A stretch of 64,000 nt of DNA from Acidobacteriota bacterium (lineage in GTDB: Bacteria > Actinomycetota > Acidimicrobiia > Acidimicrobiales > Ilumatobacteraceae). Positions 3,085-54,029 of this stretch are shown piece after piece; positions within the stretch are counted from its first letter, which is position 1, and the number at the start of each line of letters is the position of its first letter. The stretch spans positions 3,223-67,222 of the forward strand of contig JAGWXX010000001.1 in the NCBI GenBank assembly GCA_018969685.1. Direction: 5' to 3'. Made by a program: the position numbers and the translations under genes. Below the pieces are notes generated by a model. The model did not search any database and had not been told where the DNA came from. It saw nothing but the letters and a program-made list of their open reading frames with translations.

Positions 3085-3100
3085 CCCGGGTGGCTGCCGG

Positions 3101-3805: not shown

Positions 3806-3821
3806 GTCGCTGGAGGGCCCC

Positions 3822-4934: not shown

Positions 4935-4941
4935 CGGCCCC

Positions 4942-6362: not shown

Positions 6363-6370
6363 GCCGACGC

Positions 6371-10633: not shown

Positions 10634-10672
10634 CGCGAACCGTCGGGGCGCAGGGGCTCCGGTAGCCTCGTA

Positions 10673-10691
10673 GTGGCCGCGCAACGGCCAC
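10673..10691 (+). other. Stem-loop GTGGCCG-CGCAA-CGGCCAC in the only sizeable intergenic gap of the glycan operon
   Basis: Perfect 7-bp stem seen directly in sequence, 2 nt upstream of the GGGAG SD of the aldolase gene. No U-tract. Confidence 0.3.
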
Positions 10692-10701
10692 TGGGAGCGC
10701 G

Positions 10702-11463: not shown

Positions 11464-11473
11464 GCGCGGCGAG

Positions 11474-15128: not shown

Positions 15129-15793
15129 GCGTGCCGCCGCCGTCCGACCTCGAGGGCGACGACGTCGTCGCGCACTGCGCCGGGGACATTGCCGACCTGC
15201 TCGCTGCGGCGGCGGACCTCACCGGCCGCGCGGTGCTGGCCGTGTGCGGCGGCAGCGCGGCGGAGCGCGTGCTGCGGCAGATTGCGCGCGATGCGCGCGG
15301 TCTGGGCCGGGTCACCGTGCTGCTCGCCGACGAGCGCTGCACCTCCGAGGGCGGCGACGACCGCAACGAGACGATGGTGCGCGCCGCGCTCGCCGGCTCC
15401 GGCGCGACGGTGATGGGCGTCGGTCCCGCGGACGACCCCGCCGTCGCCGCCGCGTCGTACGACGCGCGCACCGCGCACCTGCGCATCGACGTCGCGCTGG
15501 TGAGCCTCGCCGACGACGGGCACGTGGCCAGCCTCTTCCCGGGGCATCCCGCGCTCGACGACGCGCGCGGCATCGTGCCCGTGACCGGGAGCCCCAAGCC
15601 GCCGGCGAACCGCCTCAGCATGTCGGTCGTCCGGTTGCGCGGCGCGCACCACCGGCTGGTCGTCGCGATCGGCGGCGCGAAGCACGGCGCGGTCGAGCTG
15701 CTGCGGTCCGGCGGGCGCGGTCCGGCGGCGCTGATCGAACCGACGCGTTGGTATCTTGATCGGGCCGCATCACACGACGGTGCCGCGCGATGA
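15125..15793 (+). CDS. 6-phosphogluconolactonase / NagB-superfamily protein
   Basis: GTG 15125 (GTGA overlap). Motifs: AVCGGSAAE, LLADERC, SLADDGHVASLFPGHP, GSPKPPANRLSMS. Confidence 0.7.
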   Translation: MSVPPPSDLEGDDVVAHCAGDIADLLAAAADLTGRAVLAVCGGSAAERVLRQIARDARGLGRVTVLLADERCTSEGGDDRNETMVRAALAGSGATVMGVGPADDPAVAAASYDARTAHLRIDVALVSLADDGHVASLFPGHPALDDARGIVPVTGSPKPPANRLSMSVVRLRGAHHRLVVAIGGAKHGAVELLRSGGRGPAALIEPTRWYLDRAASHDGAAR

Positions 15794-15814: not shown

Positions 15815-16594
15815 ATGAAGACCGTGATCCTCTGCGGCGGGTTTGGCACCCGCATCCGGGACGTGTCGTCCGACGTTCCCAAGCCGATGATCCCGGTCGG
15901 CAACCGCCCCATTCTCTGGCACGTCATGCGCCACTACGCCCACTTCGGGCACCGCGAGTTCGTGCTGTGCCTCGGCCACCAGGGCGACGTGATCAAGGAC
16001 TTCTTCCTCAACTACCGGGCGCGCACCAGCACCCTCACCGTCGACTTCGCCCGCGACGGTGCGACGACGTACCACGCATCCGAGCCCGACATCGACTGGT
16101 CGGTCACGCTCGTCGACACCGGCCACGGCACGATGACCGGCGGCCGGGTCCGGCGCATCGAGCCCTGGGTGCGGGGCGAGCGCTTCATGCTCACGTACGG
16201 CGACGGGCTGAGCGACGTCGACCTCGGTGCGCTCGTGGCCTTCCACGAACGGCAGGGCACCGTCGCGACCGTGACCGGCGTGCGCCCACCGGGCCGCTTC
16301 GGCGAGCTCGTCTCGTCGTCCGACGGGCGCGCAACCGAGTTCAACGAGAAGCCGCAGGCCACCGGCGGGCTCATCTCGGGCGGGTTCTTCGTCCTCGAGC
16401 CGTCGTTCTTCGGGCACCTCGACGCCCGCGACGACCTCGTCCTCGAGGAGCAGCCCATGCGCTCGCTCGTCGCCGCGAAGCAGCTGTCGGTGTTCCAGCA
16501 CGACGGGTTCTGGCAGTGCATGGACACCCACCGCGACTGGACCCTGCTGAACCAGATGGCCGAGCGCGGGAACCAGCCGTGGAAAGTCTGGTAG
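15815..16594 (+). CDS. rfbF: Glucose-1-phosphate cytidylyltransferase
   Basis: MKTVILCGGFGTRIRD...PKPMIPVG, GGFFVLEP, FWQCMDT motifs. Confidence 0.9.
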   Translation: MKTVILCGGFGTRIRDVSSDVPKPMIPVGNRPILWHVMRHYAHFGHREFVLCLGHQGDVIKDFFLNYRARTSTLTVDFARDGATTYHASEPDIDWSVTLVDTGHGTMTGGRVRRIEPWVRGERFMLTYGDGLSDVDLGALVAFHERQGTVATVTGVRPPGRFGELVSSSDGRATEFNEKPQATGGLISGGFFVLEPSFFGHLDARDDLVLEEQPMRSLVAAKQLSVFQHDGFWQCMDTHRDWTLLNQMAERGNQPWKVW

Positions 16595-17655
16595 CGGCGC
16601 TCGCCGCGCTGGCCGGACGGCGCGTCCTCGTCACCGGCGACACGGGCTTCAAGGGCTCGTGGCTCTCGCTGTGGCTGCACGACCTCGGCTGCGAGGTGCA
16701 CGGTTACGCGCTGCCGCCCGACGGTCCGACGTCGCACTTCGGGCAGCTCGGGCTCGCCGGGCTGATCCACCACGTCGACGGCGACGTACGCGACGCCGAC
16801 CGCCTCGCGCGGGCCTTCCGCGACGCACGGCCGGAGGTGGTGATCCACCTCGCCGCGCAGCCGATCGTGCGCCGCTCGTACCGCGACCCGAAGGAGACGT
16901 TCGACACGAACGTGGCAGGCGGCGTGAACCTGCTGGAGTGCGTCCGGGCATCGGACGACGTGGCGGCTCTGGTGTTCGCCACGTCCGACAAGTGCTACCG
17001 GAACGTCGAGACGGCGCGCGGCTACGTCGAGGACGACCGTCTCGGCGGGCACGACCCCTACAGCGCGTCGAAGGCGGCGGCCGAGCTGGTCTTCGCGTCG
17101 TACCTCGACTCGTTCTTCCGCGCACGGCCGGGCACGGGTGCGGCGACCTCGCGCGCGGGCAACGTCATCGGCGGCGGCGACTGGGCCGAGGACCGCATCA
17201 TCCCGGACTGCATCCGCGCGCTGTCGGCCGGCCGACCGGTGCGCATCCGCTCGCCGCGCGCGACGCGGCCGTGGCAGCACGTGCTCGAGCCGCTGTCGGG
17301 ATACCTCGTCCTCGCGGCCGCGCTGCTGCGAGACCCCTCGGCGCACGAGGGCAGCTGGAACTTCGGGCCTCCAGAGTCGGCGGTGCACACGGTGGGCGAC
17401 GTCGTCGACCTCGTGATCGAGGGCTGGGGTTCGGGCAGCGTGGAGATCGAGCCCGCGCCGCCCGGCCTGCACGAGGCCGGCCTGCTCAGCCTGAACTGCG
17501 ACAAGGCGCGCGACGGCCTCGGCTGGTCTCCGCGCTGGGACTTCGCGACCACCGTGGCGCGCACGGTCGAGTGGTACCGCCTGCAGCACGACGGCGCGCC
17601 GGCGATCGAGCTCACCCGCCGCCACCTATCGTCGTACCTGGAGGTGCCCGCATGA
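16579..17655 (+). CDS. rfbG: CDP-glucose 4,6-dehydratase
   Basis: GTG 16579 is in the frame of ORF 15967..17655 (16-nt overlap with rfbF). Motifs: VLVTGDTGFKGSWL, TSDKCY, YSASKAA. Confidence 0.9.
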   Translation: MESLVAALAALAGRRVLVTGDTGFKGSWLSLWLHDLGCEVHGYALPPDGPTSHFGQLGLAGLIHHVDGDVRDADRLARAFRDARPEVVIHLAAQPIVRRSYRDPKETFDTNVAGGVNLLECVRASDDVAALVFATSDKCYRNVETARGYVEDDRLGGHDPYSASKAAAELVFASYLDSFFRARPGTGAATSRAGNVIGGGDWAEDRIIPDCIRALSAGRPVRIRSPRATRPWQHVLEPLSGYLVLAAALLRDPSAHEGSWNFGPPESAVHTVGDVVDLVIEGWGSGSVEIEPAPPGLHEAGLLSLNCDKARDGLGWSPRWDFATTVARTVEWYRLQHDGAPAIELTRRHLSSYLEVPA

Positions 17656-18101
17656 TCGACGGCGTCACGATCACGCCCCTGCGCCAGATCCACGACGAGC
17701 GCGGCAAGGTGATGCACATGCTGCGGTCGACCGACCCGCACTTCCGGGAGTTCGGCGAGATCTACTTTTCGTGCGTGTACTCCGGCGTCGTCAAGGCGTG
17801 GCACGTGCACGACCGGATGGTGCTGAACTACGCGGTGCCCGTCGGCAAGATCAAGTTCGTCCTGTACGACGACCGCGAGGGGAGCCCGACGCGCGGCGAG
17901 GTGCAGGAGATCTTCATGGGGCCCGACCACTACTGCCTGGTGACGGTGCCGCCGCTGGTGTGGAACGGCTTCAAGGGCGTGGGGGGCGAGATGGCGGTGG
18001 TCGCCAACTGCGCGTCCATCCCCCACGACCCCGCCGAGATCCGCCGCCTCGCGCCCGACGACCCGTCGATTCCCTACGACTGGTCGCTCGTGCACCGATG
18101 A
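17652..18101 (+). CDS. Cupin-fold sugar-nucleotide epimerase (RfbC-like)
   Basis: ATG 17652 (ATGA overlap). DERGKVMHMLR...GEIYFSCVYSGVVKAWHVH pattern of 4-keto-6-deoxy-sugar epimerase cupins. Confidence 0.7.
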   Translation: MIDGVTITPLRQIHDERGKVMHMLRSTDPHFREFGEIYFSCVYSGVVKAWHVHDRMVLNYAVPVGKIKFVLYDDREGSPTRGEVQEIFMGPDHYCLVTVPPLVWNGFKGVGGEMAVVANCASIPHDPAEIRRLAPDDPSIPYDWSLVHR

Positions 18102-19051
18102 CCGCACGCACCCTCGTCACCGGCGGGTTCGGGGCGATCGGCGGGCGGCTCGTCGCGCACCTCGCACGACAGGGAACCCCGGTGCGCGTCGGTGCGCGTC
18201 GCGCCGCACCCGCGTGGGCCGCGGACGTCGACACGGTGCAGATGGACCTGGAGCACCCGGCCGACTGGTCGCGCGCGCTCGACGGCGTGGGCGCCATCGT
18301 GCACCTCGCGGCGCTGAACGACCGCGACGCGAAGGCCGACCCCGCGCGCGCGAGGCGCGTCGGCGTGGACGGCACCGCTCAGCTGCTCGAGCAGGCCGTG
18401 CGCCACGGCGTCGGACGATTCGTGTTCATGTCGACCGCGCACGTGTACGGCACGCCGTACACCGGCCGCATCGACGAGTCGACGCCGACCGCGCCCTCGT
18501 CGCCCTACGCCGAGACGCACCTCGAGGCGGAGCGGCTGGTGGAGCGCGCGCACGTGGACGGTGCGCTCGTGGGCGTGCGGCTGCGCTGCTCGAACGGGTT
18601 CGGCCGGCCCGCGTCGCCCGACGCCGCGATCTGGCAGGTGGTGTTCAACGACCTGTGCCGCCAGGCCGCCACGACGAACGCGCTCGTGCTGGCCTCGCCC
18701 GGGCTGCAGCACCGCAACTTCATCCCCTTCGGGGAGGTGGCGGGCGCCATCGCCCACGTGCTCGACGCGCCCGCCGAGGTGCTGGGCGACGGGCTCTTCA
18801 ACCTCGGCTCGCCGCGGTCGATGCGCATCCTCGACGTCGCGCACCTCGTGCGCGACCGCGCTCGCGCCGTGCTGGGCACGGAGCCGTCGCTGCAGGTGCC
18901 GGCGGCGAGCGGACCCGTCGACGACCAGCCCGTCGACTTCGTCATCGACAAGCTGGCAGCCACCGGGGCGCCGCTGCGGGGCGACCTCGAGTCGGAGGTG
19001 GACGACCTGCTGCGCTGGTGCGCGCGCGAGTTCGGCGGGGTGCGCGCGTGA
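18098..19051 (+). CDS. NAD-dependent sugar-nucleotide epimerase/4-ketoreductase (extended SDR)
   Basis: ATG 18098 (ATGA overlap). TLVTGGFGAIGGRL Rossmann motif, FMSTAHVYG, NFIPFGEVA region. Confidence 0.8.
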   Translation: MTARTLVTGGFGAIGGRLVAHLARQGTPVRVGARRAAPAWAADVDTVQMDLEHPADWSRALDGVGAIVHLAALNDRDAKADPARARRVGVDGTAQLLEQAVRHGVGRFVFMSTAHVYGTPYTGRIDESTPTAPSSPYAETHLEAERLVERAHVDGALVGVRLRCSNGFGRPASPDAAIWQVVFNDLCRQAATTNALVLASPGLQHRNFIPFGEVAGAIAHVLDAPAEVLGDGLFNLGSPRSMRILDVAHLVRDRARAVLGTEPSLQVPAASGPVDDQPVDFVIDKLAATGAPLRGDLESEVDDLLRWCAREFGGVRA

Positions 19052-19938
19052 CCCGCGTGTCGGTGGTGGTGCCCACCTACAACCACGCGCGGTTCATCGG
19101 CGACGCGCTGCGCTCGGTGGTGGCGCAGACCTTCGGCGACTGGGAGGCCGTCGTCGTCAACAACTTCTCGACCGACGACACGGTCGACGTGGTGCAGGGC
19201 ATCGGCGACCCCCGCATCCGCCTCGTCGACTTCGCGAACCACGGCATCATCGCCGCGGGCCGCAACGAGGGCATACGGCTCGCGACCGGCGACTACGTGG
19301 CGTTCCTCGACTCGGACGACGCCTGGCACCCCGGGAAGCTCGCGCGCTGCATTGCGGAGCTGGACGCCGGCGCCGACCTCGTCTGCCATGCCGAGCGCTG
19401 GACGGGCGGCGGTCGCCCCGAGCGCGAGGTGCGCTACGGGCCGGCGGAGATGGCCGCCTACCGCCCGCTGCTGCTTCGGCAGAATTGCATCTCCACGTCG
19501 GCCACGGTGGTGCGGCGGTCGGTGCTGGAGCGCGTCGGCGCGTTCGACCCGCGTCCCGAGTTCGTGACCGCCGAGGACTACGAGCTGTGGCTGCGCATCG
19601 CGCGCACCGGCTGCGACATCCGGTTCGTCGACGAGGTGCTGGGGGAGTACCGGCGCCACGAGGGCAACGCGAGCGGCGCGGTGCTGCGCCACTACCGCGC
19701 CGAGCGTGCGGTGGTCGAGCACCACCTCGCCGGAGCGACGGACGTCGGGTTCGCGGCGCGGCGCCGGCGCATCGCGCGCACCGTGTACACGGCGGGGCGC
19801 GGATTCCAGGCTGCGGGCCGCCGCGGTGCCGCGCTGCGCATGTTCGCCGGCGCGCTCGCGCGCTGGCCCTTCGAGCCGCGCACGTGGGCGGCACTCGCGC
19901 TGCTGGCCGTCCCCGGCCGCACGCGGATCGGCGGCTGA
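19048..19938 (+). CDS. Family-2 glycosyltransferase (GT-A fold)
   Basis: GTG 19048 (GTGA overlap). Motifs: VSVVVPTYNHARFI, FLDSDD, AEDYELWLR. Confidence 0.85.
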   Translation: MTRVSVVVPTYNHARFIGDALRSVVAQTFGDWEAVVVNNFSTDDTVDVVQGIGDPRIRLVDFANHGIIAAGRNEGIRLATGDYVAFLDSDDAWHPGKLARCIAELDAGADLVCHAERWTGGGRPEREVRYGPAEMAAYRPLLLRQNCISTSATVVRRSVLERVGAFDPRPEFVTAEDYELWLRIARTGCDIRFVDEVLGEYRRHEGNASGAVLRHYRAERAVVEHHLAGATDVGFAARRRRIARTVYTAGRGFQAAGRRGAALRMFAGALARWPFEPRTWAALALLAVPGRTRIGG

Positions 19939-19940
19939 CC

Positions 19941-20915
19941 GTGGACCTGCGCGCGCTGTACGCGCCCGCCCACGTGACGCACTGGTCGCTGGCGCGCCAC
20001 GCGCTCGTCGAGGCGCTGCGGTCGTGCGGCGCCACCGGCGGCGCCACCGTGCTGCTGCCGTCGTTCGTGTGCCGCGACCTGCTGGGCGCCGTCGCCGCGG
20101 CAGGCGCCCGCCACGCCTACTACGACGTCGACGAGCGCCTGCAGCCCGGGGACCTGCCCGCCGGCGCGCGCGCAGTGCTGGCCGTCGACTACTTCGGGTT
20201 CGCCGCGCCGATGGAGCCGTTCCGCGACTACTGCCGCGCACAGGGGGCCGTGCTCATCGAGGACAACGCGCACGGACTGCTCAGCCGCGACGCGGACGGC
20301 GCGCTGCTCGGCACGCGCGGCGACCTCGGCATCCTCAGCATGCGCAAGTCGCTCCGCCTCGCCGACGGCGGCGCGCTGCTCGACTGCCGGCCCGGTGCCG
20401 CGCACGACGAGCCCGCGTGCGACCCGGACGCGGGACAGGGGGGCGCGGGCATCCGCGCCGCGGTGGCGTCCGTCGAGCGGCGAACCGGACTTCCCGTGAT
20501 GGCCGCGATGCGGGCGGGCGTCCGTGCCGCACGCCGGGCTGCGGGCCGTCCCGCGCTGCCGTCGTCGGGCGACGAGGACGAGCGGCGCGTGCCCGGCGAC
20601 ACCGCGATCTCGTGCTCGTCGCTCGATCGGCTCTCGCGCGCGGATGCGCCGCACGAGGCCGAGCGCCGCCGCGAGCTGTGGCGCGAGGTGACGGCCGATC
20701 TCGACGGCGCGCGCGGCGTGCGGCTCATCCATGACCGGCTGCCCGACGGGAGCGTGCCGTACGGTGTCGCCGTGCACGCCGACAGCGACGACGTCCTGCG
20801 CGCCGTGGCGCGGCGGCACCGCGCGACCGCGATGACCTGGCCCGCGCTGCCCGCCGACGTGGCGCCGACCGCGCCGGCGCACTACCGCGACGTGAGGCTG
20901 GTGAACTTCCTGTGA
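19941..20915 (+). CDS. DegT/DnrJ/EryC1-like PLP-dependent enzyme, short divergent form
   Basis: GTG 19941. VLLPSFVCRDLLGAV, VLIEDNAHGL and GDLGILSMRKS (candidate PLP lysine). Lacks the usual N-terminal ~40 aa and has an atypical Arg/Ala-rich C-terminal half. Confidence 0.55.
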   Translation: MDLRALYAPAHVTHWSLARHALVEALRSCGATGGATVLLPSFVCRDLLGAVAAAGARHAYYDVDERLQPGDLPAGARAVLAVDYFGFAAPMEPFRDYCRAQGAVLIEDNAHGLLSRDADGALLGTRGDLGILSMRKSLRLADGGALLDCRPGAAHDEPACDPDAGQGGAGIRAAVASVERRTGLPVMAAMRAGVRAARRAAGRPALPSSGDEDERRVPGDTAISCSSLDRLSRADAPHEAERRRELWREVTADLDGARGVRLIHDRLPDGSVPYGVAVHADSDDVLRAVARRHRATAMTWPALPADVAPTAPAHYRDVRLVNFL

Positions 20916-22954
20916 GCAGCCCGCAGCGCTGGACCATGCTCGGCGACGCCGACGAGGCGCGCTGGCAGCGCGCGCTGGACGCGCACCCGGGCGCGCCGGT
21001 GTTCCAGCACTGGGGGTGGGGCGAGTTCCAGCGCGGCGGAGGGTGGACCCCGATGCGCCTCATCAGCGAGCCGCGCGACCCGTCGCGCGAGACCGCGGCG
21101 GTGGCGCAGGTGCTGGGCCGCCGGATGCCGGAGGGCACCATGTTCGCCTGGGTGCCGGGCGGCCCGCTGGTGTCCGAGCCGTCGCGCACCGCCGAGATGA
21201 TGCAGACCCTGCACCGCACCCTGCTCGACGAGTTCGGCCGCTGCTACACGCGCTGCAACGTGATGGCGCCGCACGACAAGGGCACGTTCATGATGACGAA
21301 CGCGTCGATGCGGCGCCCGAACCGCCCGGTGAACAGCCGCTACTCGGTGTTCGTCGACCTCACCGCCCCGCACGACGCGTGGCTGAAGTCGATCCGCAAG
21401 AAGCACCGCTACGAGGTGAAGCGCGCCGAGCACTCGTCGCTCGAGTGGACGTTCTCGACCGACGACCTGTCGCTCAGCCTGCTGGCCGACGTGCTGCGCC
21501 AGATGGTCGAGGAAAAGCGCATCGACGTGCCGATCTACTCGTTCCCGCAGCTGGCCGCGATGCGCGGTGCGCTCGGCGACTCGATGACCGTGGTCGTCGG
21601 CCTGCACGATGGCCAGCCCGCCGCCGGCGCGCTCGTGCTGTCGCTGGGCGGCCGTTCGCACTACCTCGCCGCCGGCTCGACGCACGCAGGCCGCAAGGTG
21701 AGCGCGTCGTACGCGATGATGTCGCGCCTCTACCAGCACCTGCAGACGAAGGGGCTCACGACGCTCGACCTCGGCGGCATCGCGCCGAGCAACCGCCGCG
21801 CGGTGGGCGTCGACCACTTCAAGCTGGGATTCGGCGGCGAGGTGGTCGAGTACCTCGGCGAATGGGAGATCGGCTCGGTGCCGGCGCGGCTGCTCGGCAA
21901 CGCCGCCGTGCGCCGCATCATCCGCTCGAGCCGGCCCGCGAAGCCCGAGAAGACCGAGCCGCAGTCGACCGAGTGGTCGACGTGGGAGGGAACCGACCGC
22001 GAGTGGGACGAGGGGCTCATGCACCTGCCCCACTATTCCGTGTACCAGAGCAGCCGCTGGGGCGAGCACCGCAAGGCGTTCGGCTGGCGGCCGATCAAGC
22101 TCGTCGCGCGGCGCAACGGCACCGTGGCGACGATGGTGCAGGTGCAGACGCGCCGCTACTCGCGACTGACGGGCCTGGCGTGGGCGCCGGGCGGACCGGT
22201 GGGCGACGTCGCATCGTGCGGCCCGCTGCTGCGCCGCGCGATCGCGCAGGAGATGGGCGTCCGGTTCGTGCTGCACCGCCTGAACCTCACGCGTCCGCAC
22301 AGCGACGAGGACGCGTTCCGCCTCGAGCGGCTGGGGTGGTCGACGAGCCGCGTGCCGATCCTCTCGGGCCTCAGCCTCGTGTACGACCTGGTGGGGCCCG
22401 ACCGCGAGGCGGCGCTGACGAAGAACTGGCGCCACAACCTGCGGCGCGCGCAGAAGCGGCCGATCACCAGCTACCTGTGGACCAATCCGTCGGCCGACGA
22501 GATGAAGACGGTGTACGACTCGATGCACGCCTACAAGGGCATCGAGCACCTCGCCGGCCAGAACACCGTCGACTCGATGGGCTCGCTGATCGGGCTGTTC
22601 GGCGGGGACTGCCTGGTCGTGCGCTGCGACGACGAGGACGGGAGCTTCCTCGCGCTGCGTGGCGCGCTGGTGATGGGCGACTGGGCGTGGGACACGTTTG
22701 CCGCGTCGACCCCGCAGGGCCGCAAGCTCTACGCCTCGTACCACGCGTTCTGGACGCTCATGGAGTGCTGCCGCGAGCGCGGCGTGCGCAACTACGACAT
22801 GGGCGGCATCGACCCCATCGGCAACCGCGGCGTCTACGACTTCAAGCAGGGCACCGGCGCGGTGCCCACGCGGTTCCTCGGCGAGTGGGAGTTCTCGCAG
22901 CCCCGGCTGCTCGGCCTCATCGCCGGCCAGCGCATCGCCAAGAGGCTCGGCTGA
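20912..22954 (+). CDS. Tandem-duplicated FemAB/CelD-like acyl(aminoacyl)transferase, two modules in one 680-aa protein
   Basis: GTG 20912 (GTGA overlap). The two halves repeat the same motif series: FQHWGWGEFQRGGGWTP / YQSSRWGEHRKAFGWRP, IRKKHRYEVKRAEH / KNWRHNLRRAQKR, LDLGGIAP..FKLGFGGE..LGEWE / YDMGGIDP..FKQGTGAV..LGEWE. Confidence 0.65.
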   Translation: MSSPQRWTMLGDADEARWQRALDAHPGAPVFQHWGWGEFQRGGGWTPMRLISEPRDPSRETAAVAQVLGRRMPEGTMFAWVPGGPLVSEPSRTAEMMQTLHRTLLDEFGRCYTRCNVMAPHDKGTFMMTNASMRRPNRPVNSRYSVFVDLTAPHDAWLKSIRKKHRYEVKRAEHSSLEWTFSTDDLSLSLLADVLRQMVEEKRIDVPIYSFPQLAAMRGALGDSMTVVVGLHDGQPAAGALVLSLGGRSHYLAAGSTHAGRKVSASYAMMSRLYQHLQTKGLTTLDLGGIAPSNRRAVGVDHFKLGFGGEVVEYLGEWEIGSVPARLLGNAAVRRIIRSSRPAKPEKTEPQSTEWSTWEGTDREWDEGLMHLPHYSVYQSSRWGEHRKAFGWRPIKLVARRNGTVATMVQVQTRRYSRLTGLAWAPGGPVGDVASCGPLLRRAIAQEMGVRFVLHRLNLTRPHSDEDAFRLERLGWSTSRVPILSGLSLVYDLVGPDREAALTKNWRHNLRRAQKRPITSYLWTNPSADEMKTVYDSMHAYKGIEHLAGQNTVDSMGSLIGLFGGDCLVVRCDDEDGSFLALRGALVMGDWAWDTFAASTPQGRKLYASYHAFWTLMECCRERGVRNYDMGGIDPIGNRGVYDFKQGTGAVPTRFLGEWEFSQPRLLGLIAGQRIAKRLG

Positions 22955-22956
22955 CC

Positions 22957-24084
22957 GTGCTGCTCTACGCGGTCCAGGCCGCGTTGCTGGGCGCACTCGC
23001 GTGGATCCTCGTCGCGCCCCACTGCCGTCGGCGACTCGTGCCAACCGCAGCCGTGGCGCTGTGGGCGGTGGGCGTGACGGCGATCTTCCGCCGCTACGGC
23101 GCCGACGGGCTGCTCGATTTCTACTCGAACGACCAGCGCTACCACCAGTTCCTCGTCGGCAAGCTGGAGTGGGGCGGCAGGCCGCTGCTGTTCAGCGACA
23201 TCGAGGAGCGCCGCTACACGTACCTCGGCTGGGCCTGGCTCGGCCGCGCCGTCGGCTTCGACGAGGTGCTCGTGCTGAAGTTCGTGGCGCTGGTGTGCTC
23301 GCTCGTCACCTACCGCATCGTCGAGCGCGAGTTGGACACGTCGGGTGCCGGCGCGAAGCTGCGCTGGGTGTGGCTCACCACCGGCCCGGTGATGCTGTTC
23401 TTCAGCCTGCTCGCATTGCGCGAGACGATGCTGGCCATGTCACTGACCTACCTGTTCGTGGGGCGCAACCCGTCGCTGCGGCTGGCGGCGTTCGTGAACG
23501 CGTTCATCCTGCGGCCGCACCTGGGCATCGCGCTCGCCGCGGGCTGGGGGCTGGTGTGGGCGGTGCGGCGCATCCCTGCCGCGTGGCACTCGGTGCGCCT
23601 CGCCGTCACGGCGGTGACCTCGGCGCTGCTGGGGGCGTGGCTGCTCGCCGTGATCGGCCGCGTGGTGGGCTCGTGGACGCCACCGGAGTCCCCATTTCCG
23701 CCCGACAAGGACGCGGTGTTCGGCATCCTCGCCAACCTGACCGGGCTGCAGTTCCTGCTGGTCGACACCGTGACGATCGAGCGGTCGCTGACGAACCTCG
23801 TCGTCACCCGGGCGCTCTTCTTCGAGACCATCGCGGTGCCGACGCTGTTCGCGCTGTCGCTGTTCGTGCCGTTCGTGCGCTTCGAGCGCCTGCGGCTGTG
23901 GGTGCTGGCCAGCTTCGTGATCTACCTGGGCGTCATCACCGGCACCGACTTCACGTCGTTCCGCCAGACCCTGCCGTTCATGCCGACGATGGGGCTGCTG
24001 GTGGTGCACGGGTGGCTGGAGCTGCGCGAGGGACGAAGCGACGCGGCACCTTCGTCACCCCACCAACTCGTCGCGCAGCGCTGA
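22957..24084 (+). CDS. Polytopic membrane protein, O-antigen polymerase/ligase-like (Wzy-type candidate)
   Basis: GTG 22957. About 10 hydrophobic segments with one larger loop. Last gene of the glycan operon. Function assigned by context only. Confidence 0.45.
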   Translation: MLLYAVQAALLGALAWILVAPHCRRRLVPTAAVALWAVGVTAIFRRYGADGLLDFYSNDQRYHQFLVGKLEWGGRPLLFSDIEERRYTYLGWAWLGRAVGFDEVLVLKFVALVCSLVTYRIVERELDTSGAGAKLRWVWLTTGPVMLFFSLLALRETMLAMSLTYLFVGRNPSLRLAAFVNAFILRPHLGIALAAGWGLVWAVRRIPAAWHSVRLAVTAVTSALLGAWLLAVIGRVVGSWTPPESPFPPDKDAVFGILANLTGLQFLLVDTVTIERSLTNLVVTRALFFETIAVPTLFALSLFVPFVRFERLRLWVLASFVIYLGVITGTDFTSFRQTLPFMPTMGLLVVHGWLELREGRSDAAPSSPHQLVAQR

Positions 24085-25509
24085 CATCCTGCTCGGGCCC
24101 GCCCGGAGGTCGCCCTCGCGCCGTGCGACGCGCTCGTACGACCGCCACTCCTCCGTGACCGCGGACGAGTCCCCGCGCGACGCGTGGGCGCGCATCCGCA
24201 GCTCCACCAGCCCCTCGTGGTTGCGGAGCACCGACAGTCCGCGCCCCGTCGCCCAGAACACGTCGTCGATGTCGCCGTGCTCCAGCGCCGCACGGGCCAG
24301 CGCCTCGGTCGCACGGACCACGAGCAGCACCAGCGACGACGTGATCCCCTCCGTGTCCGGCCACAGGTAGCCCGAGCCGGCGAACGGCAGGTCGCGCACC
24401 CGACCCAGTGCCGTCCGCAATTCGTCGCCGTCATCCGGCGAGCGTCGGAACCGCACGAGCGCGGACTCCAGCAGCTCGGCGTCCGACACGACGCTCGGCG
24501 CGAGCCGCAGGCGGTCGTCCGGCGATCGGTCGAGCAGCAGCCGGCCGTCGCTGGTTCCGAGCGACCTGCGCAGATCCGACACGACGTTGTTGAACGTCGC
24601 GCCCCGCACCTCGGCATCCCACATGGCCGTGCGCGCAGCCGATCGTGTCGGCCGGTCCCGGTGGGTGACCAACCACGCCAGCAGTTCCAAGGATCGACCG
24701 CGGGGAAACGTCACCGGCGCGCCGGTCGCGTCCTCCACCTCGACCGGGCCGAGTACGCGGACGACGAAGGTCGGTTGGACCGCCGCGCGCTCGTACCACG
24801 TCGTCGGCACCAATGGACGGGATGCCTCGACGATCAGCCCTGCGGTGCCGTCGTCGTGCGGAACCGCCGGCGCATCCTCGGCCGGGGTCGGGCCCGCCAC
24901 CACCCAGTCGCCGGCGAACGGCATCGCCCCGGAGACGTCTACTCCTGCGTGCCGCGCACCCCTGTCCGCGGATGCAAGTGTGGCAGTGAGGCGCAGCGAC
25001 GCCGCCCGGCTCAATGGCGGCACCACCGCGTCGAGATCGGCGGCGGCGAGTCGCACATTGCGTGCGAGCCCGACCGCACCGACCACCGCTGCAGCACCCG
25101 TCACCGTCGACACGATGGCCACGGGGATCTCGACGGATCCTCGGACCGCCACCGGAGCGTGCGGCGCCGGGGCGTCGTGGATCTGGCCGCCGCCGGGGAC
25201 CGCGACGCACGCCCACACCGCCGCGACGAACACCGAGGGGGCGCCCGCAGCAGACACGGTCGTGGCCTGCGGCGACCTGCCACCGAGTCGGGCGGCGACT
25301 GCGGCAAGGGTGCCGACCGCGAACCACACCCACGCGATCCAGACGACCGCCACCACGGAGCCACCGACGATGCCCGCCACGTCGAAGGGGACCCGCGCCG
25401 CGGCGAGATCCGCAACGGTCGCACGCGGGCCGAGCCCGCCCACCACGAGCACCGCCGGCGTTCCCGCCAGGAACGTCGCCCCGGACACCACCACCAGTGG
25501 CGGTGTCAC
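24055..25509 (-). CDS. Membrane-anchored SARP-type regulator (about 4 TM helices + OmpR-like winged helix + BTAD)
   Basis: GTG 25509 (GTGA overlap with upstream tadE-like stop). Hydrophobic N-terminal ~170 aa, then VVRVLGPVEV...RSLELLAWLV...VVSDLRRSL winged helix and a BTAD-like helical repeat (GLVELRMRAHASRGD). Confidence 0.7.
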   Translation of the reverse strand: MTPPLVVVSGATFLAGTPAVLVVGGLGPRATVADLAAARVPFDVAGIVGGSVVAVVWIAWVWFAVGTLAAVAARLGGRSPQATTVSAAGAPSVFVAAVWACVAVPGGGQIHDAPAPHAPVAVRGSVEIPVAIVSTVTGAAAVVGAVGLARNVRLAAADLDAVVPPLSRAASLRLTATLASADRGARHAGVDVSGAMPFAGDWVVAGPTPAEDAPAVPHDDGTAGLIVEASRPLVPTTWYERAAVQPTFVVRVLGPVEVEDATGAPVTFPRGRSLELLAWLVTHRDRPTRSAARTAMWDAEVRGATFNNVVSDLRRSLGTSDGRLLLDRSPDDRLRLAPSVVSDAELLESALVRFRRSPDDGDELRTALGRVRDLPFAGSGYLWPDTEGITSSLVLLVVRATEALARAALEHGDIDDVFWATGRGLSVLRNHEGLVELRMRAHASRGDSSAVTEEWRSYERVARREGDLRAGPSRMSALRDELVG

Positions 25510-25871
25510 GGCTCGCTCACCGGCTCGGCGGAACGCTCCGCGGCGACCCGTCGCTCCTCCACGCCGAGCAGGGCCAGCAACGGGAGTCGCACGACGATCG
25601 TCGTCCGGACGGTCACGCGCCGCTCCGACGCAGTCACCTCCCCGTCGATGCCATGGCCGGACAGGTACGCGCGCGCGGCGGAGAGCGCGGCGGGACGGTC
25701 GACCGACGGCGAGCCGCTGCGCAGCGACTCGAGGTGCTGCACCCCCGCGCGCGCCGCGTTCTCCGCGTGGTCGCCCGCCGCCACGGCGGCCGCCACGACG
25801 CGTCCCCCATCGACCGCCAGTGCCGTGCACGCGACGAACCCCATTGCGAGCGCCACCACGAGCGCGGACAC
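25506..25871 (-). CDS. TadE-like pseudopilin (Rv3654c-type)
   Basis: GTG 25871 preceded by GGAGGAAGG SD. N-terminus EEGSVSALVVALAMGF hydrophobic helix typical of TadE/TadF-like proteins. Confidence 0.65.
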   Translation of the reverse strand: MSALVVALAMGFVACTALAVDGGRVVAAAVAAGDHAENAARAGVQHLESLRSGSPSVDRPAALSAARAYLSGHGIDGEVTASERRVTVRTTIVVRLPLLALLGVEERRVAAERSAEPVSEP

Positions 25872-25897
25872 CGAACCTTCCTCCGTCCCCCGGTGCG

Positions 25898-26296
25898 TCA
25901 CCCCGCCCTCCACAGGTCGATCACCTCCGTCGATCGCGCCTCGAGCCGGCGCGTCCGCACCCCGAGCAGCTCCAGTCCCGCGATCCGGACCGTGCATTCG
26001 ATCTCGACCATGACGGCCCGCACCGACGAGTCGCCGTCGACTGCGACGTTCACCAGGGGCTCGGTGCACGACGAGCCGGAGCCGACGAGGTCGTCCCGTA
26101 CCGCGCGCTCGCCGACGTCCTCCATGCGGTCGGTGCGCACCATCGACGCCGCGCGCGCCCCCTGGTCGGCCGCGTGCCGCAACTGCACGAGCGCCTCCGC
26201 CGAGCGGCCCGCGTGCACCACCGACATCACCAGCACGACGAGCAATGGCGCCAGGAGCACCATCTCGACCGTCGCGCTTCCCCGTTCGGCCGTCAC
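25898..26296 (-). CDS. TadE-family pilus assembly protein
   Basis: GTG 26296 (GTGA overlap with upstream stop). ERGSATVEMVLLAPLLVVLVM signature N-terminus. Confidence 0.75.
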   Translation of the reverse strand: MTAERGSATVEMVLLAPLLVVLVMSVVHAGRSAEALVQLRHAADQGARAASMVRTDRMEDVGERAVRDDLVGSGSSCTEPLVNVAVDGDSSVRAVMVEIECTVRIAGLELLGVRTRRLEARSTEVIDLWRAG

Positions 26297-26706
26297 CGTT
26301 CGTCCTCGTACCGGTACCGCTCGAGGGGCTCGCGGACGGAACGGACCGCGGTCCGCGGGAGGAACGGGGCGATCGGCGGGACGTCGATCCACACCGACAC
26401 CTCGATCCACTCCCCATCGACGAGCGCCACCGGCTCGCGCGCCGTCCGCGAGGACAGGCTGACGACGGTCGCCGACGCGACCGCCACCGCCTCCTCGCCG
26501 CTGCCGCCACGCGCGGCCCCTGCTGCCGCGCCGCGGGACGCGGCGACCGCCGCGACCTGCGCCCCGTGCAGGAACGCCGCCGCGTGCACCGCGATCATCA
26601 GCACCGCGAAGACCAGCGGAACGGCGATCACCGTTTCGGCGGATGTCTCGCCGCGCTCGACGGACGGCTCAGCCAAGGTCGAGGGAATTCGCCTTGTCAC
26701 GGACAC
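26293..26706 (-). CDS. TadE-family pilus assembly protein
   Basis: ERGETSAETVIAVPLVFAVLMI N-terminus. Start uncertain: GTG 26706 or 26700, or TTG 26676, which would overlap flp by only 8 nt. Confidence 0.65.
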   Translation of the reverse strand: MSVTRRIPSTLAEPSVERGETSAETVIAVPLVFAVLMIAVHAAAFLHGAQVAAVAASRGAAAGAARGGSGEEAVAVASATVVSLSSRTAREPVALVDGEWIEVSVWIDVPPIAPFLPRTAVRSVREPLERYRYEDER

Positions 26707-26854
26707 GGTCGGTGATGGTGGCTGCGACGGCGATGGCGAGCGCCACGAGGGCCGCCGCCATCACGATGGTCGTGGCACTCACCTCTCCGCGCTCGACGTC
26801 GTGCTCGGCGGAGGCGCGGAGGCGGATCCAGAGGTACCGGGCGATGTGCTGCAT
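26669..26854 (-). CDS. flp: Flp-family type IVb prepilin (61 aa)
   Basis: ATG 26854 with GAAGGGA SD. Charged leader, then ERG/EVSATTIVMAAALVALAIAVAA hydrophobic core. Lies between tadC and the tadE genes. Confidence 0.7.
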   Translation of the reverse strand: MQHIARYLWIRLRASAEHDVERGEVSATTIVMAAALVALAIAVAATITDRVRDKANSLDLG

Positions 26855-26899
26855 GTCATGGTTCCCTTCGTGTGGTTGATGGTGCGATGTGTGGATCGA

Positions 26900-27703
26900 T
26901 CACGTCCCGACGACGAGGTGCGACAGCGCCGGATAGACGATGAGCGCGAGAAACCCGACGAAGACGAGCACCATCGGGATCCCCATCCGCTCCGTCGCCG
27001 CGTGCGCCGACGCCTCGATCTCGTCGCCGATCCGCGCCCGCATCGCCTCGGACCGCGCAACGAGCGACTCGCGGATCCGCGCACCGTGCGAGCCGGCCAG
27101 ATCGATGCTGTCCGCAAGCTCCACCAGCTGGTCGATGCCGAGGCGCCGCCCGAGCGCGCGCAATTCCTGCCACGGCGAACGTCCCGTGTCGCGGGACCGT
27201 GCCAGGGACTCGCGGAGCAGCACGAAGGCTTCCGAGCCGCCGGCCCGGGCCGAGGCGGTGAGGGCGGTTTCCAGTCCCGCACCACCTGCGAGCAGCACCG
27301 TCGTCAGGTCGAGGAAGCTCGACAGCGCGTGGACGAACTGCCGCCTCCGCCGGAGCGCGCTGCGGCGCACCGCGGCGTCGGGCGCGACAAACCCCGCCAC
27401 GGAGCCGACGAGGGTCGCAAGGGTGACGAGCGGCAACGACGGTCCGGTGCCGGCCACGCGGAGCAGGACGGCGACCGCCACCACCGACGCTGCGCCGACG
27501 ATCGCGCCGAGGACCTGGCGCACGACGAGATCGTCCGCCACCAGACCGAGCACCTCCAGGTCGGCGCGCCGGCGCCTCAGTGCGGACCTCGCAACCCGCT
27601 CGCGGGTGCGAGCGACCGCGAACGGGATCTCCTCCGTCGCACCTCGCGCCAGGACGGCGAGACCGAGGCCCGCCCCCGCGCCGGCCACCACTGCACCGAT
27701 CAC
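26900..27703 (-). CDS. tadC: Type II secretion system F-family membrane protein (TadC)
   Basis: GTG 27703 (GTGA overlap). T2SSF-like cytoplasmic domain flanked by TM helices (MGIPMVLVFVGFLALIVYPAL at the C-terminus). Confidence 0.8.
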   Translation of the reverse strand: MIGAVVAGAGAGLGLAVLARGATEEIPFAVARTRERVARSALRRRRADLEVLGLVADDLVVRQVLGAIVGAASVVAVAVLLRVAGTGPSLPLVTLATLVGSVAGFVAPDAAVRRSALRRRRQFVHALSSFLDLTTVLLAGGAGLETALTASARAGGSEAFVLLRESLARSRDTGRSPWQELRALGRRLGIDQLVELADSIDLAGSHGARIRESLVARSEAMRARIGDEIEASAHAATERMGIPMVLVFVGFLALIVYPALSHLVVGT

Positions 27704-28530
27704 GATCGCGCCCCGACGAAGCGTTCCGGCACGTCGACCCGGGACATGCGGGCCATCCACCACAGCGAGACCGCGAACACGCCGAGGATCCCCGTGAGCA
27801 CCACCTGCCCCGTCGCCGTCGAATAGGGCCCGAGGTACTCGCGGTTGAAGGCGGCGAGGCCCACGACGAACGTCGCGACCACCGCTGCGACGATGCGCAC
27901 CGAGCTGCGGGTGCGCGCCCGCCCCACCCAGATCCGTCCTCGCATGCGGCTCTCCTCCCGTGCGCACTGGGCGACTCGCCCGAGGAGCTGGCGGAGGTCG
28001 CGCGCCTCGTGGTCGGCCGCAGTGGCCAGCGCCGCCACGACGAAGTCGGCGGTCGGGTGGTCGACGTCGTCGGCGAAGCGCCGCATCGCGTCCGACAGCC
28101 CGCGGTACGGCACGGTCGCAACGAGGCGCTGCACCGCGGGTGCGATCTCCGCGGGCGCACGACCGCTCGTCGCCGCCACCGCCTCCTCCAATCCGCGGGC
28201 GCCGGCGAGCGTGTCGCGGATCTGCTCGGTCCACGACGCGATCGCCTCCACGAGTGCTCCCTCGTCGCGCGCACTCTGGCGGTGACGGCCGATACCCGGC
28301 GCAAGTGCCGTCGCGACGCCGGCCGCGACGGCCAGCACCGGCCACCGCACCGCCACCCAGGTGACAGCCACCGCGGACGACACGAGGACGACACGGGCCG
28401 GTCCGGGCCGGCTCCGGTCCGTCCGTGCCACGAGACCCACGAGCGACGAACGTCCACGGAGCGCACCGAGCACGACGAGCAGGCCGAGGCCGGCCACCGA
28501 CCCGGCGAGTGCTGCGACGAGCTGGCTCAC
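27700..28530 (-). CDS. tadB: Type II secretion system F-family membrane protein (TadB)
   Basis: GTG 28530 (GTGA overlap with tadA stop). N-terminal TM, central soluble domain, C-terminal TM pair. Confidence 0.8.
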   Translation of the reverse strand: MSQLVAALAGSVAGLGLLVVLGALRGRSSLVGLVARTDRSRPGPARVVLVSSAVAVTWVAVRWPVLAVAAGVATALAPGIGRHRQSARDEGALVEAIASWTEQIRDTLAGARGLEEAVAATSGRAPAEIAPAVQRLVATVPYRGLSDAMRRFADDVDHPTADFVVAALATAADHEARDLRQLLGRVAQCAREESRMRGRIWVGRARTRSSVRIVAAVVATFVVGLAAFNREYLGPYSTATGQVVLTGILGVFAVSLWWMARMSRVDVPERFVGARS

Positions 28531-44597: not shown

Positions 44598-44607
44598 GGC
44601 CGGTCCG

Positions 44608-44907: not shown

Positions 44908-44912
44908 GGGGG

Positions 44913-47481: not shown

Positions 47482-47496
47482 GTCGGTGCTCCGTCC

Positions 47497-53897: not shown

Positions 53898-53931
53898 CAG
53901 AAGAAATGGTCAGTCCTGTTCGTCAGGTACT

Positions 53932-54006: not shown

Positions 54007-54029
54007 CTGGGTGGTGCGTGCACCACCTT

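Follow-up and report, generated by a model that had tools for sequence, protein, structure and literature searches.

A short DegT-family protein (DegT-short) and the Fem-like transferase encoded directly after it form a widespread conserved cassette, which is not peculiar to the window (the 64,000-nt stretch of DNA that we analyzed), where it lies among the surface-sugar genes of a freshwater actinobacterium. In structure the transferase is closest to FemX and then to Sbb17/Sba18, which all depend on aminoacyl-tRNA. The cassette is best read as aminoacylating an amino sugar of a glycan at the expense of charged tRNA, a reading that the data suggest rather than prove. We put at roughly 0.4 the probability that DegT-short and the Fem protein are a functional pair whose transferase modules aminoacylate an amino sugar of a surface glycan from aminoacyl-tRNA. 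New here are the conserved cassette itself, the fusion of two Fem paralogues, and a DegT-short that keeps the Lys and Asp of its family but has lost elements of the PLP site.

Many O-antigens and capsules contain amino sugars N-acylated with glycyl, alanyl, seryl or aspartyl groups, and we know of few enzymes that attach these amino acids. Fem-type transferases that use aminoacyl-tRNA have known roles in peptidoglycan, in membrane lipids and for a few antibiotics; in the literature searched, no report places one in surface-glycan assembly. The cassette turns up often in metagenomes from freshwater and marine sites and is therefore a concrete, testable candidate for attaching amino acids to surface glycans. 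If the reading is correct, aminoacyl-tRNA, a substrate of translation, decorates cell-surface glycans by way of a widespread, unrecognized cassette, and the two-module fusion is a natural system in which two transfer steps could be separated by point mutation.

The operon and its counterparts in metagenomes

The two genes belong to one co-directional operon, in which the order is RfbF, RfbG, cupin, SDR, GT2, DegT-short, Fem and membrane protein (Table 1). As a sequence-only reading had noted, the TGA stop of DegT-short overlaps the GTG start of the Fem gene (GTGA; CCTGTGAGCA), the stop of 19941-20915 lying within the start of 20912-22954. The same reading had the DegT-like gene following the genes for a CDP-4-keto sugar; it is indeed downstream of them in the same operon, but the cupin, the SDR and GT2 intervene after RfbG. 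The best PDB match of the cupin is 3ejk, annotated 'dTDP sugar isomerase' (E 7e-40), and its counterpart in a Burkholderiales locus is 76% identical. For the SDR the best PDB match is 6wjb (67 bits). A hydropathy scan of GT2 finds no hydrophobic segment, hence no transmembrane helices, and its nearest NCBIfam matches (TuaG, EpsD and WcaA) all score under their cut-offs. The terminal membrane protein matches no family in Pfam or NCBIfam, and the PF01182 gene keeps its position in related loci. No dedicated tRNA or synthetase gene was found in the operon, three tRNA genes lying 30 kb away. Genes for nonulosonic acids sit immediately upstream of the locus, as they do in several related loci.

Table 1. 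Genes and protein modules of the operon, with positions in the window
Feature	Position	Strand	Basis
TIGR04326-family surface carbohydrate biosynthesis protein, 600 aa	13326..15128	+	NCBIfam TIGR04326, 309 bits (cut-off 250)
Glucosamine-6-P isomerase / 6-phosphogluconolactonase-like, 222 aa	15125..15793	+	Pfam PF01182, E 6.6e-36
Glucose-1-phosphate cytidylyltransferase, RfbF type	15815..16594	+	TIGR02623, 310 bits (cut-off 300)
CDP-glucose 4,6-dehydratase, RfbG type	16579..17655	+	TIGR02622, 445 bits (cut-off 278)
RmlC-like cupin, 149 aa, predicted NDP-sugar epimerase or isomerase	17652..18101	+	PF00908, 38.9 bits
Extended SDR, 317 aa, predicted reductase or epimerase	18098..19051	+	PF01370, E 1.5e-35
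Family-2 glycosyltransferase (GT2)	19048..19938	+	PF00535, E 4e-33
DegT-short, DegT/DnrJ/EryC1/StrS-fold, 324 aa	19941..20915	+	partial Pfam match, family alignment, AlphaFold, Foldseek
Fem module 1 (aa 1-332), divergent 'N-type'	20912..21907	+	FK = F303-K304, Lys codon 21821
Inter-module linker (aa 333-351), predicted disordered, variable	21908..21964	+	pLDDT <50
Fem module 2 (aa 352-680), mainstream 'C-type', including stop	21965..22954	+	FK = F644-K645, Lys codon 22844
Polytopic membrane protein, 375 aa, ~8-9 hydrophobic segments, last operon gene	22957..24084	+	hydropathy scan

The pairing is tight elsewhere. Among 67 metagenomic loci that were found by DegT-short alone, 61 have a Fem-like gene starting between -60 and +300 bp from the end of DegT-short, nearly always with a single module; one metagenome scan holds more than 532 DegT-short loci. 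The overlap of stop and start codons recurs in three of the loci (L010, L012 and L014). Counted over loci with enough flank, GT2 (46/58), SDR (34/46), cupin, RfbG (28/35) and RfbF (29/35) lie upstream in 70-83%, while 18 of 27 related loci carry TIGR04326, often the first cassette gene, ahead of the pair. On the 3' side of the Fem gene a membrane protein is kept in 23/39 and a Polysacc_deac_1 gene is found in 21/39. The consensus order is thus TIGR04326, RfbF, RfbG, cupin, SDR, GT2, DegT-short, Fem, (deacetylase), membrane protein, and it recurs across phyla, Burkholderiales and Elusimicrobiota among them. Four loci (L012, L052, L059 and L079) have the DegT-short/Fem pair but lack the CDP-glucose genes.

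These neighborhoods bear on where the acceptor amine comes from. The Fem proteins could be aminoacyl transferases that act on the amine of another sugar of the locus, for instance a de-N-acetylated hexosamine or the diamino precursor of a nonulosonic acid, with DegT-short serving, for example, to modify the transferred aminoacyl group. The upstream nonulosonic-acid genes and the frequent deacetylase would supply such amines. Furthermore, a 2,985-bp contig (L095) carries a GT2::Fem fusion (P0256) that has no DegT-short between its two parts and lies ahead of a deacetylase gene, a PEP-CTERM exopolysaccharide locus lists a deacetylase beside its FemAB gene, and DegT-short itself has an atypical cofactor and substrate site and a missing N-terminal segment. 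However, no polysaccharide deacetylase was found at the window's locus or at the other Ilumatobacteraceae loci with the double form, and the window and many related loci without one keep the codon-overlapping pair; the adjacency of DegT-short and Fem is also much tighter than that of Fem with deacetylase or nonulosonic-acid genes. We therefore regard a separate source of the amine as rather unlikely.

A DegT-family protein with an altered cofactor site

The sequence-only reading was right that the DegT-like enzyme lacks the usual N-terminus: about 45 residues are absent, and the match to Pfam DegT_DnrJ_EryC1 (PF01041; 43.5 bits vs 19.8) places residues 10-147 on profile positions 40-185 of 360 only. 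All NCBIfam DegT-family equivalogs score far under their cut-offs. The short N-terminus is genuine and not a start-codon artefact, because the in-frame stretch upstream falls in the coding frame of GT2 and more than 100 homologues are equally short (320-370 aa).

Across 26 diverse homologues the residues Asp108 (codon 20262), His111, Ser133 and Lys136 (codon 20346) do not vary, and DegT-short is a well-conserved subfamily. Lys136 aligns with the Schiff-base Lys of the solved sugar aminotransferases TlmJ, KdnA and Pcryo_0618, and Asp108 with the Asp of their conserved IED motif, which in the DegT family pairs with the pyridine nitrogen of the cofactor. In the profile alignment to PDB aminotransferases, by contrast, Ala-Arg19-His stands in place of the canonical Ser-Gly-Thr phosphate loop and Cys44-Arg45 in place of the stacking Phe of 'FTF', and two residues are deleted ahead of the Schiff-base Lys. 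The AlphaFold model (pLDDT 93.4) has the architecture of fold type I aminotransferases, and its top Foldseek matches are all DegT-family proteins (probability 1.0, TM 0.6-0.65, identity 13-23%), the best being sugar aminotransferases. With so atypical a site, PLP binding is no more than plausible, and DegT-short may be something other than an ordinary NDP-sugar transaminase.

Other glycan loci, too, encode a DegT-fold enzyme and, after it, an N-acylating one, as in the pairs QdtB/QdtC, WbpE/WbpD and ArnB/ArnA of NDP-sugar pathways. The partners there (QdtC, WbpD, ArnA) draw on acyl-CoA or formyl-THF, being of the left-handed beta-helix or formyltransferase kind; a further difference is that DegT-short is truncated and altered in the cofactor site. 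An Arn-type lipid-carrier pathway fits the locus poorly: unlike ArnC, GT2 has no membrane anchor and scores 21.7 bits with the ArnC model (cut-off 529), and the deacetylase is absent.

Two Fem modules in one chain

The Fem gene is an unbroken frame for 680 aa, which GC3 frame analysis marks as the coding frame. It had been described as two ~330-aa modules of FemAB/FemX/CelD type that share ordered motifs, and this holds well: the halves align over 334 residues with 30% identity (E 3e-29, far beyond chance), and both FemAB (PF02388; 91.9 bits, cut-off 24) and Acetyltransf_6 (PF13480; 73.6 bits, cut-off 22) match two stretches, one per half. The motifs are WGEFQRGGGW, KKHRYEVKRA and LDLGGIAP...FKLGFGG...LGEWE in half 1, and WGEHRKAFGW, KNWRHNLRRA and YDMGGIDP...FKQGTGA...LGEWE in half 2. 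All those listed by the earlier reading are thus present twice, but the basic helix of half 2 fits only K-x-x-R-x-x-x-x-R-A.

Profile matches to FemX of Staphylococcus aureus (E 3e-27) and Weissella viridescens (E 1e-20) align Phe304-Lys305 of FemX with F303-K304 of module 1 and F644-K645 of module 2. Lys305 is the catalytic residue of FemX (PMC12945691). The FK motif is invariant in 30 cassette-associated Fem sequences, both halves retain all seven family-invariant columns, and among fused orthologues the mean identity is 62% for module 1 and 68% for module 2, the linker being the variable part of the alignment. Since the two halves are similarly conserved, neither looks degenerate, and both modules look active.

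Could only one of them be catalytic, the other being a scaffold or substrate-binding domain? The halves do differ at the positions of FemX Lys36 (Q40 vs R387) and Tyr254 (Y251 vs D594), and of the two clades the N-type has diverged further. Nonetheless, the FK motif and invariant residues are present in both, the conservation is even, and single modules of N-type (L009, L098) and of C-type (L010, L014 and others) occur alone in the same cassette position, so that each type is presumably active by itself. A single catalytic module therefore seems improbable to us.

The full-length model is moderately confident (pLDDT 76.7, pTM 0.49). In Foldseek, with this model as query (pLDDT 76.7), W. viridescens FemX ranks first (TM(target) 0.79-0.80, rmsd 3.4-4.2 Å), followed by Sbb17/Sba18, aminoacyl-tRNA-dependent enzymes crystallized with the amino sugar streptothrisamine, and then by FemA and MprF; the top eleven matches are all aminoacyl-tRNA-dependent. 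This argues against the view that the modules are N-acyltransferases of the Acetyltransf_6/CelD kind, which would put ordinary acyl groups from acyl-CoA or an acyl carrier onto an amino sugar. The PF13480 match to both halves is in keeping with such enzymes, as is the tandem GNAT fold, and the G-R-K stretch conserved in both modules (R261/R604) could bind the phosphate of CoA or RNA alike. But the acyl-CoA tandem GNATs come further down the Foldseek list with clearly lower TM (0.4-0.57), the FemAB score exceeds that of Acetyltransf_6, and the FK motif with the FemX catalytic Lys is invariant in the family, which makes acyl-CoA an unlikely donor.

It is far less likely still that the protein is a peptidoglycan interpeptide-bridge enzyme found in a glycan operon by chance, even though FemX/FmhB are its best sequence and structure matches and one source automatically names several homologues 'lipid II:glycine glycyltransferase'. 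The gene is translationally coupled within a glycan operon that keeps its gene order in different phyla, and bacteria of the Burkholderiales and Elusimicrobiota types are, to our knowledge, not expected to make Fem-type bridges. The score with the NCBIfam peptidoglycan FemX equivalog (NF047883) is 61.9 bits against a cut-off of 500, and in the alignment neither Arg211 nor Tyr215 of FemX, which we take to bind UDP-MurNAc-pentapeptide, is conserved in the modules; at Lys36, a further such residue, they have Q40 and R387. Similarly, the XrtA/PEP-CTERM FemAB model (TIGR03019) gives 62 bits against 260.

The double form does not stem from the simple tandem duplication that had been proposed. Its C-half falls within the ordinary single-module enzymes of the cassette (at most 46-48% identity) and its N-half with another single-module clade, a divergent one (at most 36-43%), while the halves are 27-30% identical to each other. 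Because each half is closer to single-module relatives (41-48% identity) than to the other half, the protein is a fusion of two diverged paralogues. The earlier reading knew of no characterized double module in a glycan locus, and the fused form is rare: it falls into a single cluster at 50% identity among 1.84 billion representatives and is restricted to Ilumatobacteraceae-type loci.

A possible route and its known relatives

In the preferred reading, the CDP-glucose genes would yield CDP-4-keto-6-deoxyhexose, which the cupin and/or the SDR might remodel, and DegT-short would add an amino group to a keto sugar of the pathway. Each Fem module would move an aminoacyl group from aminoacyl-tRNA, either to the new amine and then to the alpha-amine of the first residue, or to two different amines, on a nucleotide or lipid carrier, giving a glycan sugar with one or two amide-linked amino acids. 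One module, often together with a polysaccharide deacetylase, would suffice in most bacteria, and in Ilumatobacteraceae two long-diverged versions would act as a fusion and the deacetylase would be dispensed with. Three genes, for the cupin, the SDR and GT2, separate the dehydratase from DegT-short, so that direct 4-transamination of CDP-4-keto-6-deoxyglucose is just one conceivable route among several. Against the preferred reading, the SDR could reduce the 4-keto group, and the deacetylase of about half of the loci could provide the amine instead; the atypical DegT-short site, the loci without CDP-glucose genes and the L095 contig point the same way. Somewhat more tentatively, the cassette would use aminoacyl-tRNA on surface glycans, the substrate of DegT-short might be no nucleotide sugar but, e.g., a lipid-linked sugar or the aminoacyl group, and the fusion would add a dipeptide or two different aminoacyl groups.

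In S. aureus, FmhB, FemA and FemB are successive diverged Fem paralogues that build the pentaglycine bridge on one acceptor, a natural model for sequential action by the two modules here, although they are separate proteins acting on lipid II. Each module resembles FemX (W. viridescens; FmhB of S. aureus) in its double-GNAT fold (TM(target) ~0.8), its ~330 aa, the Phe-Lys motif and the absence of the FemA coiled-coil arm; it differs in the loss of Arg211/Tyr215, in lying in a surface-glycan operon and not among cell-wall genes, and in being one of two in a chain. In exopolysaccharide loci, XrtA/PEP-CTERM FemAB genes (TIGR03019), for whose product we know of no characterized function, often lie beside a polysaccharide deacetylase; the gene table of the PEP-CTERM locus compared has no DegT-like gene beside FemAB.

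Closer in acceptor are the Fem-like proteins Orf11, Sba18 and Sbb17, which count among the top matches by sequence and by structure and act on the sugar amine of streptothrisamine, Orf11 using Gly-tRNA to aminoacylate an amino sugar (PMC12945691). They are single-module enzymes of Streptomyces secondary metabolism (streptothricin-type), with ~20% identity to the window's protein, which by contrast belongs to a surface-glycan cassette with a paired DegT-like protein. A PLP-fold enzyme joined to a Fem-like aminoacyl transferase also occurs in DhpH of dehydrophos biosynthesis, where a PLP domain is fused to a Fem-like tRNA-dependent domain (PMC12945691). We liken the two by description: DhpH has other PLP chemistry, a phosphonate substrate and another pathway, whereas here the partners are separate, translationally coupled genes.

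A DegT-like and Fem gene pair in a glycan operon

Because the G+C content of the window is 73%, genes were called by third-position GC. A single co-directional operon occupies the forward strand from about 339 to 24084, its adjacent genes mostly overlapping by 4 bases or separated by 2, with a nonulosonic-acid block first and the genes that we call the cassette last (TIGR04326, RfbF, RfbG, cupin, SDR, GT2, DegT-short, Fem and membrane protein). Here DegT-short is a truncated 324-aa protein of the DegT/DnrJ/EryC1/StrS fold, and the Fem gene encodes a 680-aa protein of two FemX-like modules, half 1 (N-half) and half 2 (C-half). The sequence-only reading had described a 680-aa protein whose gene overlaps the DegT-like gene through GTGA and which repeats a set of ordered motifs; we find all of these, in a continuous frame. 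Both halves are Fem-like, as it had suggested, with two stretches each for Pfam FemAB (91.9 bits) and Acetyltransf_6 (73.6 bits), and they form two repeat modules, 30% identical over 334 residues (E 3e-29). The DegT-like protein is indeed short at its N-terminus, and it matches the Pfam profile over the central third alone (positions 40-185 of 360); a start-codon artefact was rejected as the cause, since the shortness is a family trait and the start is not mis-called.

Genes of the window, and selected genes of related metagenomic loci (L-numbers)
Locus	Feature	Position	Strand	Remark
Window	NeuB, PglD-like acetyltransferase, CBS-nucleotidyltransferase, CMP-sugar synthetase, 370-aa protein, HisH/HisF-like amidotransferase subunits	339-6362	+	nonulosonic-acid genes, legionaminic/pseudaminic-type
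Window	three consecutive proteins (340, 383, 391 aa)	6371-9713	+	
Window	D-2-hydroxyacid dehydrogenase, HpcH/HpaI-type aldolase (10702-11463), GFO/IDH/MocA oxidoreductase, inositol-monophosphatase-like protein	9710-13329	+	
Window	TIGR04326 protein	13326-15128	+	profile match
Window	6-phosphogluconolactonase-like protein	15125-15793	+	
Window	glucose-1-phosphate cytidylyltransferase	15815-16594	+	TIGR02623 above cut-off
Window	CDP-glucose 4,6-dehydratase	16579-17655	+	TIGR02622 above cut-off
Window	RmlC-like cupin	17652-18101	+	149 aa
Window	extended SDR	18098-19051	+	
Window	GT2	19048-19938	+	
Window	DegT-short	19941-20915	+	
Window	Fem	20912-22954	+	680 aa
Window	polytopic membrane protein	22957-24084	+	375 aa
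Window	479-aa protein	24055-25494	-	convergent with the glycan operon at its end
Window	Tad/Flp pilus locus: TadE-like, two T2SSF proteins, T2SSE ATPase	25506-30454	-	
Window	cytochrome c oxidase operon: CtaG, COX3, COX1 (subunit IV-like tail), COX2 (cytochrome c domain)	43698-48660	-	G+C dips to 0.65-0.67
Window	tRNA-Glu(TTC), tRNA-Asp(GTC), tRNA-Phe(GAA)	53825-54105	+	
L009	Polysacc_deac_1 deacetylase	5682-6395		after single Fem
L012	Polysacc_deac_1 deacetylase	9994-10752		after single Fem
L014	Polysacc_deac_1 deacetylase	6450-7229		after single Fem
L095	P0256, GT2::Fem fusion	511-2442		643 aa

A metagenome scan keyed on DegT-short alone confirmed more than 532 relatives; the best 80 of these were kept for the locus counts given here. 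Every related locus comes from a metagenome or a MAG. Of the 67 loci with 900 bp or more of downstream sequence, 61 have a Fem-like gene that starts -60 to +300 bp from DegT-short. Upstream we find GT2 (46/58 loci), SDR (34/46), cupin (30/43), RfbG (28/35), RfbF (29/35) and TIGR04326 (18/27), and downstream a deacetylase (21/39) and the membrane protein (23/39). Given these associations, the pairing of DegT-short with Fem proposed by the sequence-only reading is very probably a conserved functional unit.

The same arrangement emerges from other searches. A sequence search returned 148 DegT-short homologues of 320-370 aa, and all three contexts inspected have GT2, DegT-short and a single Fem in that order, often preceded by RfbF-RfbG-cupin-SDR and followed either by a polysaccharide deacetylase or by a membrane protein some 375 aa long. 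The species-genome scan gave nine related loci. One belongs to a Burkholderiales MAG and the other eight to MAGs of Ilumatobacteraceae or 'uncultured Acidimicrobium', including two Lake Mendota loci that share 96-99% identity with the window. Gene order in the Ilumatobacteraceae loci is conserved all the way from the HpcH-type aldolase to the membrane protein, at 45-75% protein identity, with Fem in the fused 675-700-aa form every time. The Burkholderiales locus reads cupin, SDR, GT2, DegT-like and Fem, the last a single 334-aa module. Among the best 80 of more than 532 relatives the double Fem occurs in only three loci, all of Ilumatobacteraceae type, and the double module is therefore a lineage-specific elaboration. 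In roughly half of the loci the single Fem gene is succeeded by one for a Polysacc_deac_1 deacetylase, which the window and every double-Fem locus lack; in gene order, the second Fem module may occupy its place. Locus L087 (1-20951) holds three DegT-short matches, one of them partial, together with two Fem-like genes, a hint that one glycan locus may use the pair more than once.

In the literature searched, Fem genes in O-antigen, exopolysaccharide or nonulosonic-acid contexts appear only as gene-table mentions, and we found no description of a conserved DegT-short/Fem cassette in surface-glycan loci, of a distinct truncated DegT subfamily or of a two-paralogue Fem fusion; the protein families involved are already known. 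Neither a plasmid search nor a cluster-member look-up turned up a cultured organism whose glycan structure is known.

Origin and integrity of the two Fem modules

The earlier term 'tandem-duplicated', read as a recent event, has to be given up: the two halves share 27-30% identity, as against 41-48% with their single-module relatives, and a recent tandem duplication is rejected. In a neighbour-joining tree of 85 modules (trimmed alignment, no bootstrap) the C-halves nest in the main single-module clade, with up to 45-48% identity to L061, L029, L022 and L035, and the N-halves fall together with L009, L039, L075 and L079 (33-38% identity), a clade that is smaller and divergent; N-halves and C-halves are about 25-27% identical in this alignment. 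The picture from this unbootstrapped tree is matched by an exhaustive phmmer search against 1.84 billion representatives. The double form makes up only one 50%-identity cluster, and of the other 149 best matches, the C-half is the better-aligned half for about 107 (up to 46% identity) and the N-half for about 42 (up to 43%). Single Fem proteins resembling the N-half also share the cassette position of those resembling the C-half, in the orders DegT - Fem - deacetylase - GT2 (L098) and Fem - deacetylase - GT2 (L096). From the tree, the search and these cassette positions we therefore conclude that the 680-aa protein joins two paralogues that diverged long ago, and that either of them can stand alone elsewhere. 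In another fusion, P0256, an N-type Fem part is joined to a cassette-type GT2 part 37% identical to the window GT2, with a polysaccharide deacetylase next and no DegT-short between the fused parts. It comes from a single short contig, and it may be genuine or may have arisen through a deletion or an assembly artefact; we treat it only as a lead.

Seven columns are invariant in 30 family sequences, both halves included (W45, R261, G289, V300, F303, K304 and G316 in half-1 numbering). Phe304-Lys305 of W. viridescens FemX, in which Lys305 is described as the catalytic residue (PMC12945691), corresponds to F303-K304 by profile alignment and to F644-K645 via the internal alignment. Conservation among 12 fused proteins is about equal in the two halves (62% and 68%). 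The AlphaFold model (pLDDT 76.7, pTM 0.49) shows two modules whose secondary-structure elements follow one another in the same order, with a disordered linker at 333-351; the relative orientation of the modules is unreliable; a mixed alignment of fused and single proteins (A4), in which the singles scattered over both halves, was left out of structure prediction. Probably, then, both modules are catalytic, and activity of only one of them is quite improbable. The acceptor side is unlike that of FemX, as seen at four residues that we take from the mutagenesis literature to act there: nothing conserved matches Arg211 or Tyr215, and at the positions of Lys36 and Tyr254 half 1 has Q40 and Y251, half 2 R387 and D594. 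Structures of the K36M and Y254F FemX mutants are among the PDB matches.

Predicted chemistry of the cassette

DegT-short is modelled with a pLDDT of 93.4, and its closest folds are all DegT-family sugar aminotransferases (TM 0.6-0.65, 13-23% identity). Across 26 diverse homologues E107, D108, A110, H111, S133 and K136 never vary; in solved enzymes the residues aligned with D108 and K136 are, respectively, the Asp of the conserved IED motif and the Schiff-base Lys. The E1/ColD-type 3-dehydrases have His where this Lys would be, and the invariant Lys makes such an activity unlikely. Relative to canonical enzymes, the first ~45 residues are gone, Ala-Arg19-His replaces the Ser-Gly-Thr phosphate loop, Cys44-Arg45 replaces the stacking Phe, and the loop ahead of the Lys is two residues shorter. 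Many arginines are invariant (R19, R45, R126, R195, R242 and R243). Catalysis with PLP is plausible; an ordinary NDP-sugar is not assured as the substrate.

In our main reading, to which we give a probability of about 0.42, the cassette would make a CDP-6-deoxyhexose derivative, DegT-short would aminate a keto sugar of that pathway, and the Fem module or modules would N-aminoacylate the amine from aminoacyl-tRNA, the fused enzyme adding two residues, either as a dipeptide or one on each of two amines. This reading is made uncertain chiefly by the parts that the SDR and cupin play, by the loci without CDP-glucose genes and by the frequent deacetylase. For the cupin, a role as FdtA/QdtA-type 3,4-ketoisomerase is unsupported, its matches being the RmlC family and the uncharacterised structure 3ejk.

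The best structural match of the Fem modules is W. viridescens FemX (TM(target) 0.79-0.80), followed by S. aureus FemX, Sbb17 and Sba18, FemA and aminoacyl-phosphatidylglycerol synthases. Sbb17 and Sba18 were deposited as peptide synthases that depend on aminoacyl-tRNA, in complex with the amino-sugar acceptor streptothrisamine; the related Orf11 aminoacylates the streptothrisamine amino sugar from Gly-tRNA, and DhpH couples a PLP domain to a Fem-like domain (PMC12945691). This likeness is a resemblance and not a test of the donor, and on it aminoacyl-tRNA is slightly favoured. Acylation from acyl-CoA is unlikely; tandem GNATs that depend on it rank further down (TM(target) 0.4-0.57). Automatic annotation would make Fem a peptidoglycan-bridge enzyme, which is very improbable given a glycan context conserved across phyla and the failure of equivalog and acceptor-site tests.

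That the acceptor amine is made by DegT-short on a CDP-sugar is a tentative assignment, at somewhat less than even odds. The deacetylase so frequent in these loci could supply an amine by de-N-acetylation, and a source other than DegT-short, though unlikely, would draw support from this. An Arn-like pathway, in which amination is followed by transient N-acylation, transfer to undecaprenyl phosphate and deacylation, is unsupported: the GT2 has no membrane anchor and resembles the TuaG/WcaA type, and the deacetylase is missing at the window locus.

Other genes of the operon and the window

Nonulosonic-acid genes often lie directly upstream of the cassette in other loci too. In the window block, the 370-aa protein has no Pfam match and may form an acetamidino-forming trio with the HisH-like and HisF-like subunits; the dehydratase, aminotransferase and hydrolysing epimerase of the pathway would be expected upstream of the window. 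Pfam at permissive thresholds gives nothing for the 340-, 383- and 391-aa proteins, which could be unrecognised glycosyltransferases or modifying enzymes. Their homologues stand beside nonulosonic-acid genes and the cassette in the unrelated metagenomic loci L020, L054, L073 and L084. The four genes between the nonulosonic-acid block and the cassette, starting with the D-2-hydroxyacid dehydrogenase, are syntenic across Ilumatobacteraceae and in part elsewhere, and their enzymes may be the source of a further acidic sugar or acyl substituent. The 375-aa membrane protein matches no Pfam family even with permissive thresholds. Beyond the operon, the 479-aa protein, also without a Pfam match, has the same place in L002 and L017. 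The tRNA cluster is 30 kb from the Fem gene, with no link to the cassette seen, and the cytochrome c oxidase operon looks like ordinary housekeeping.
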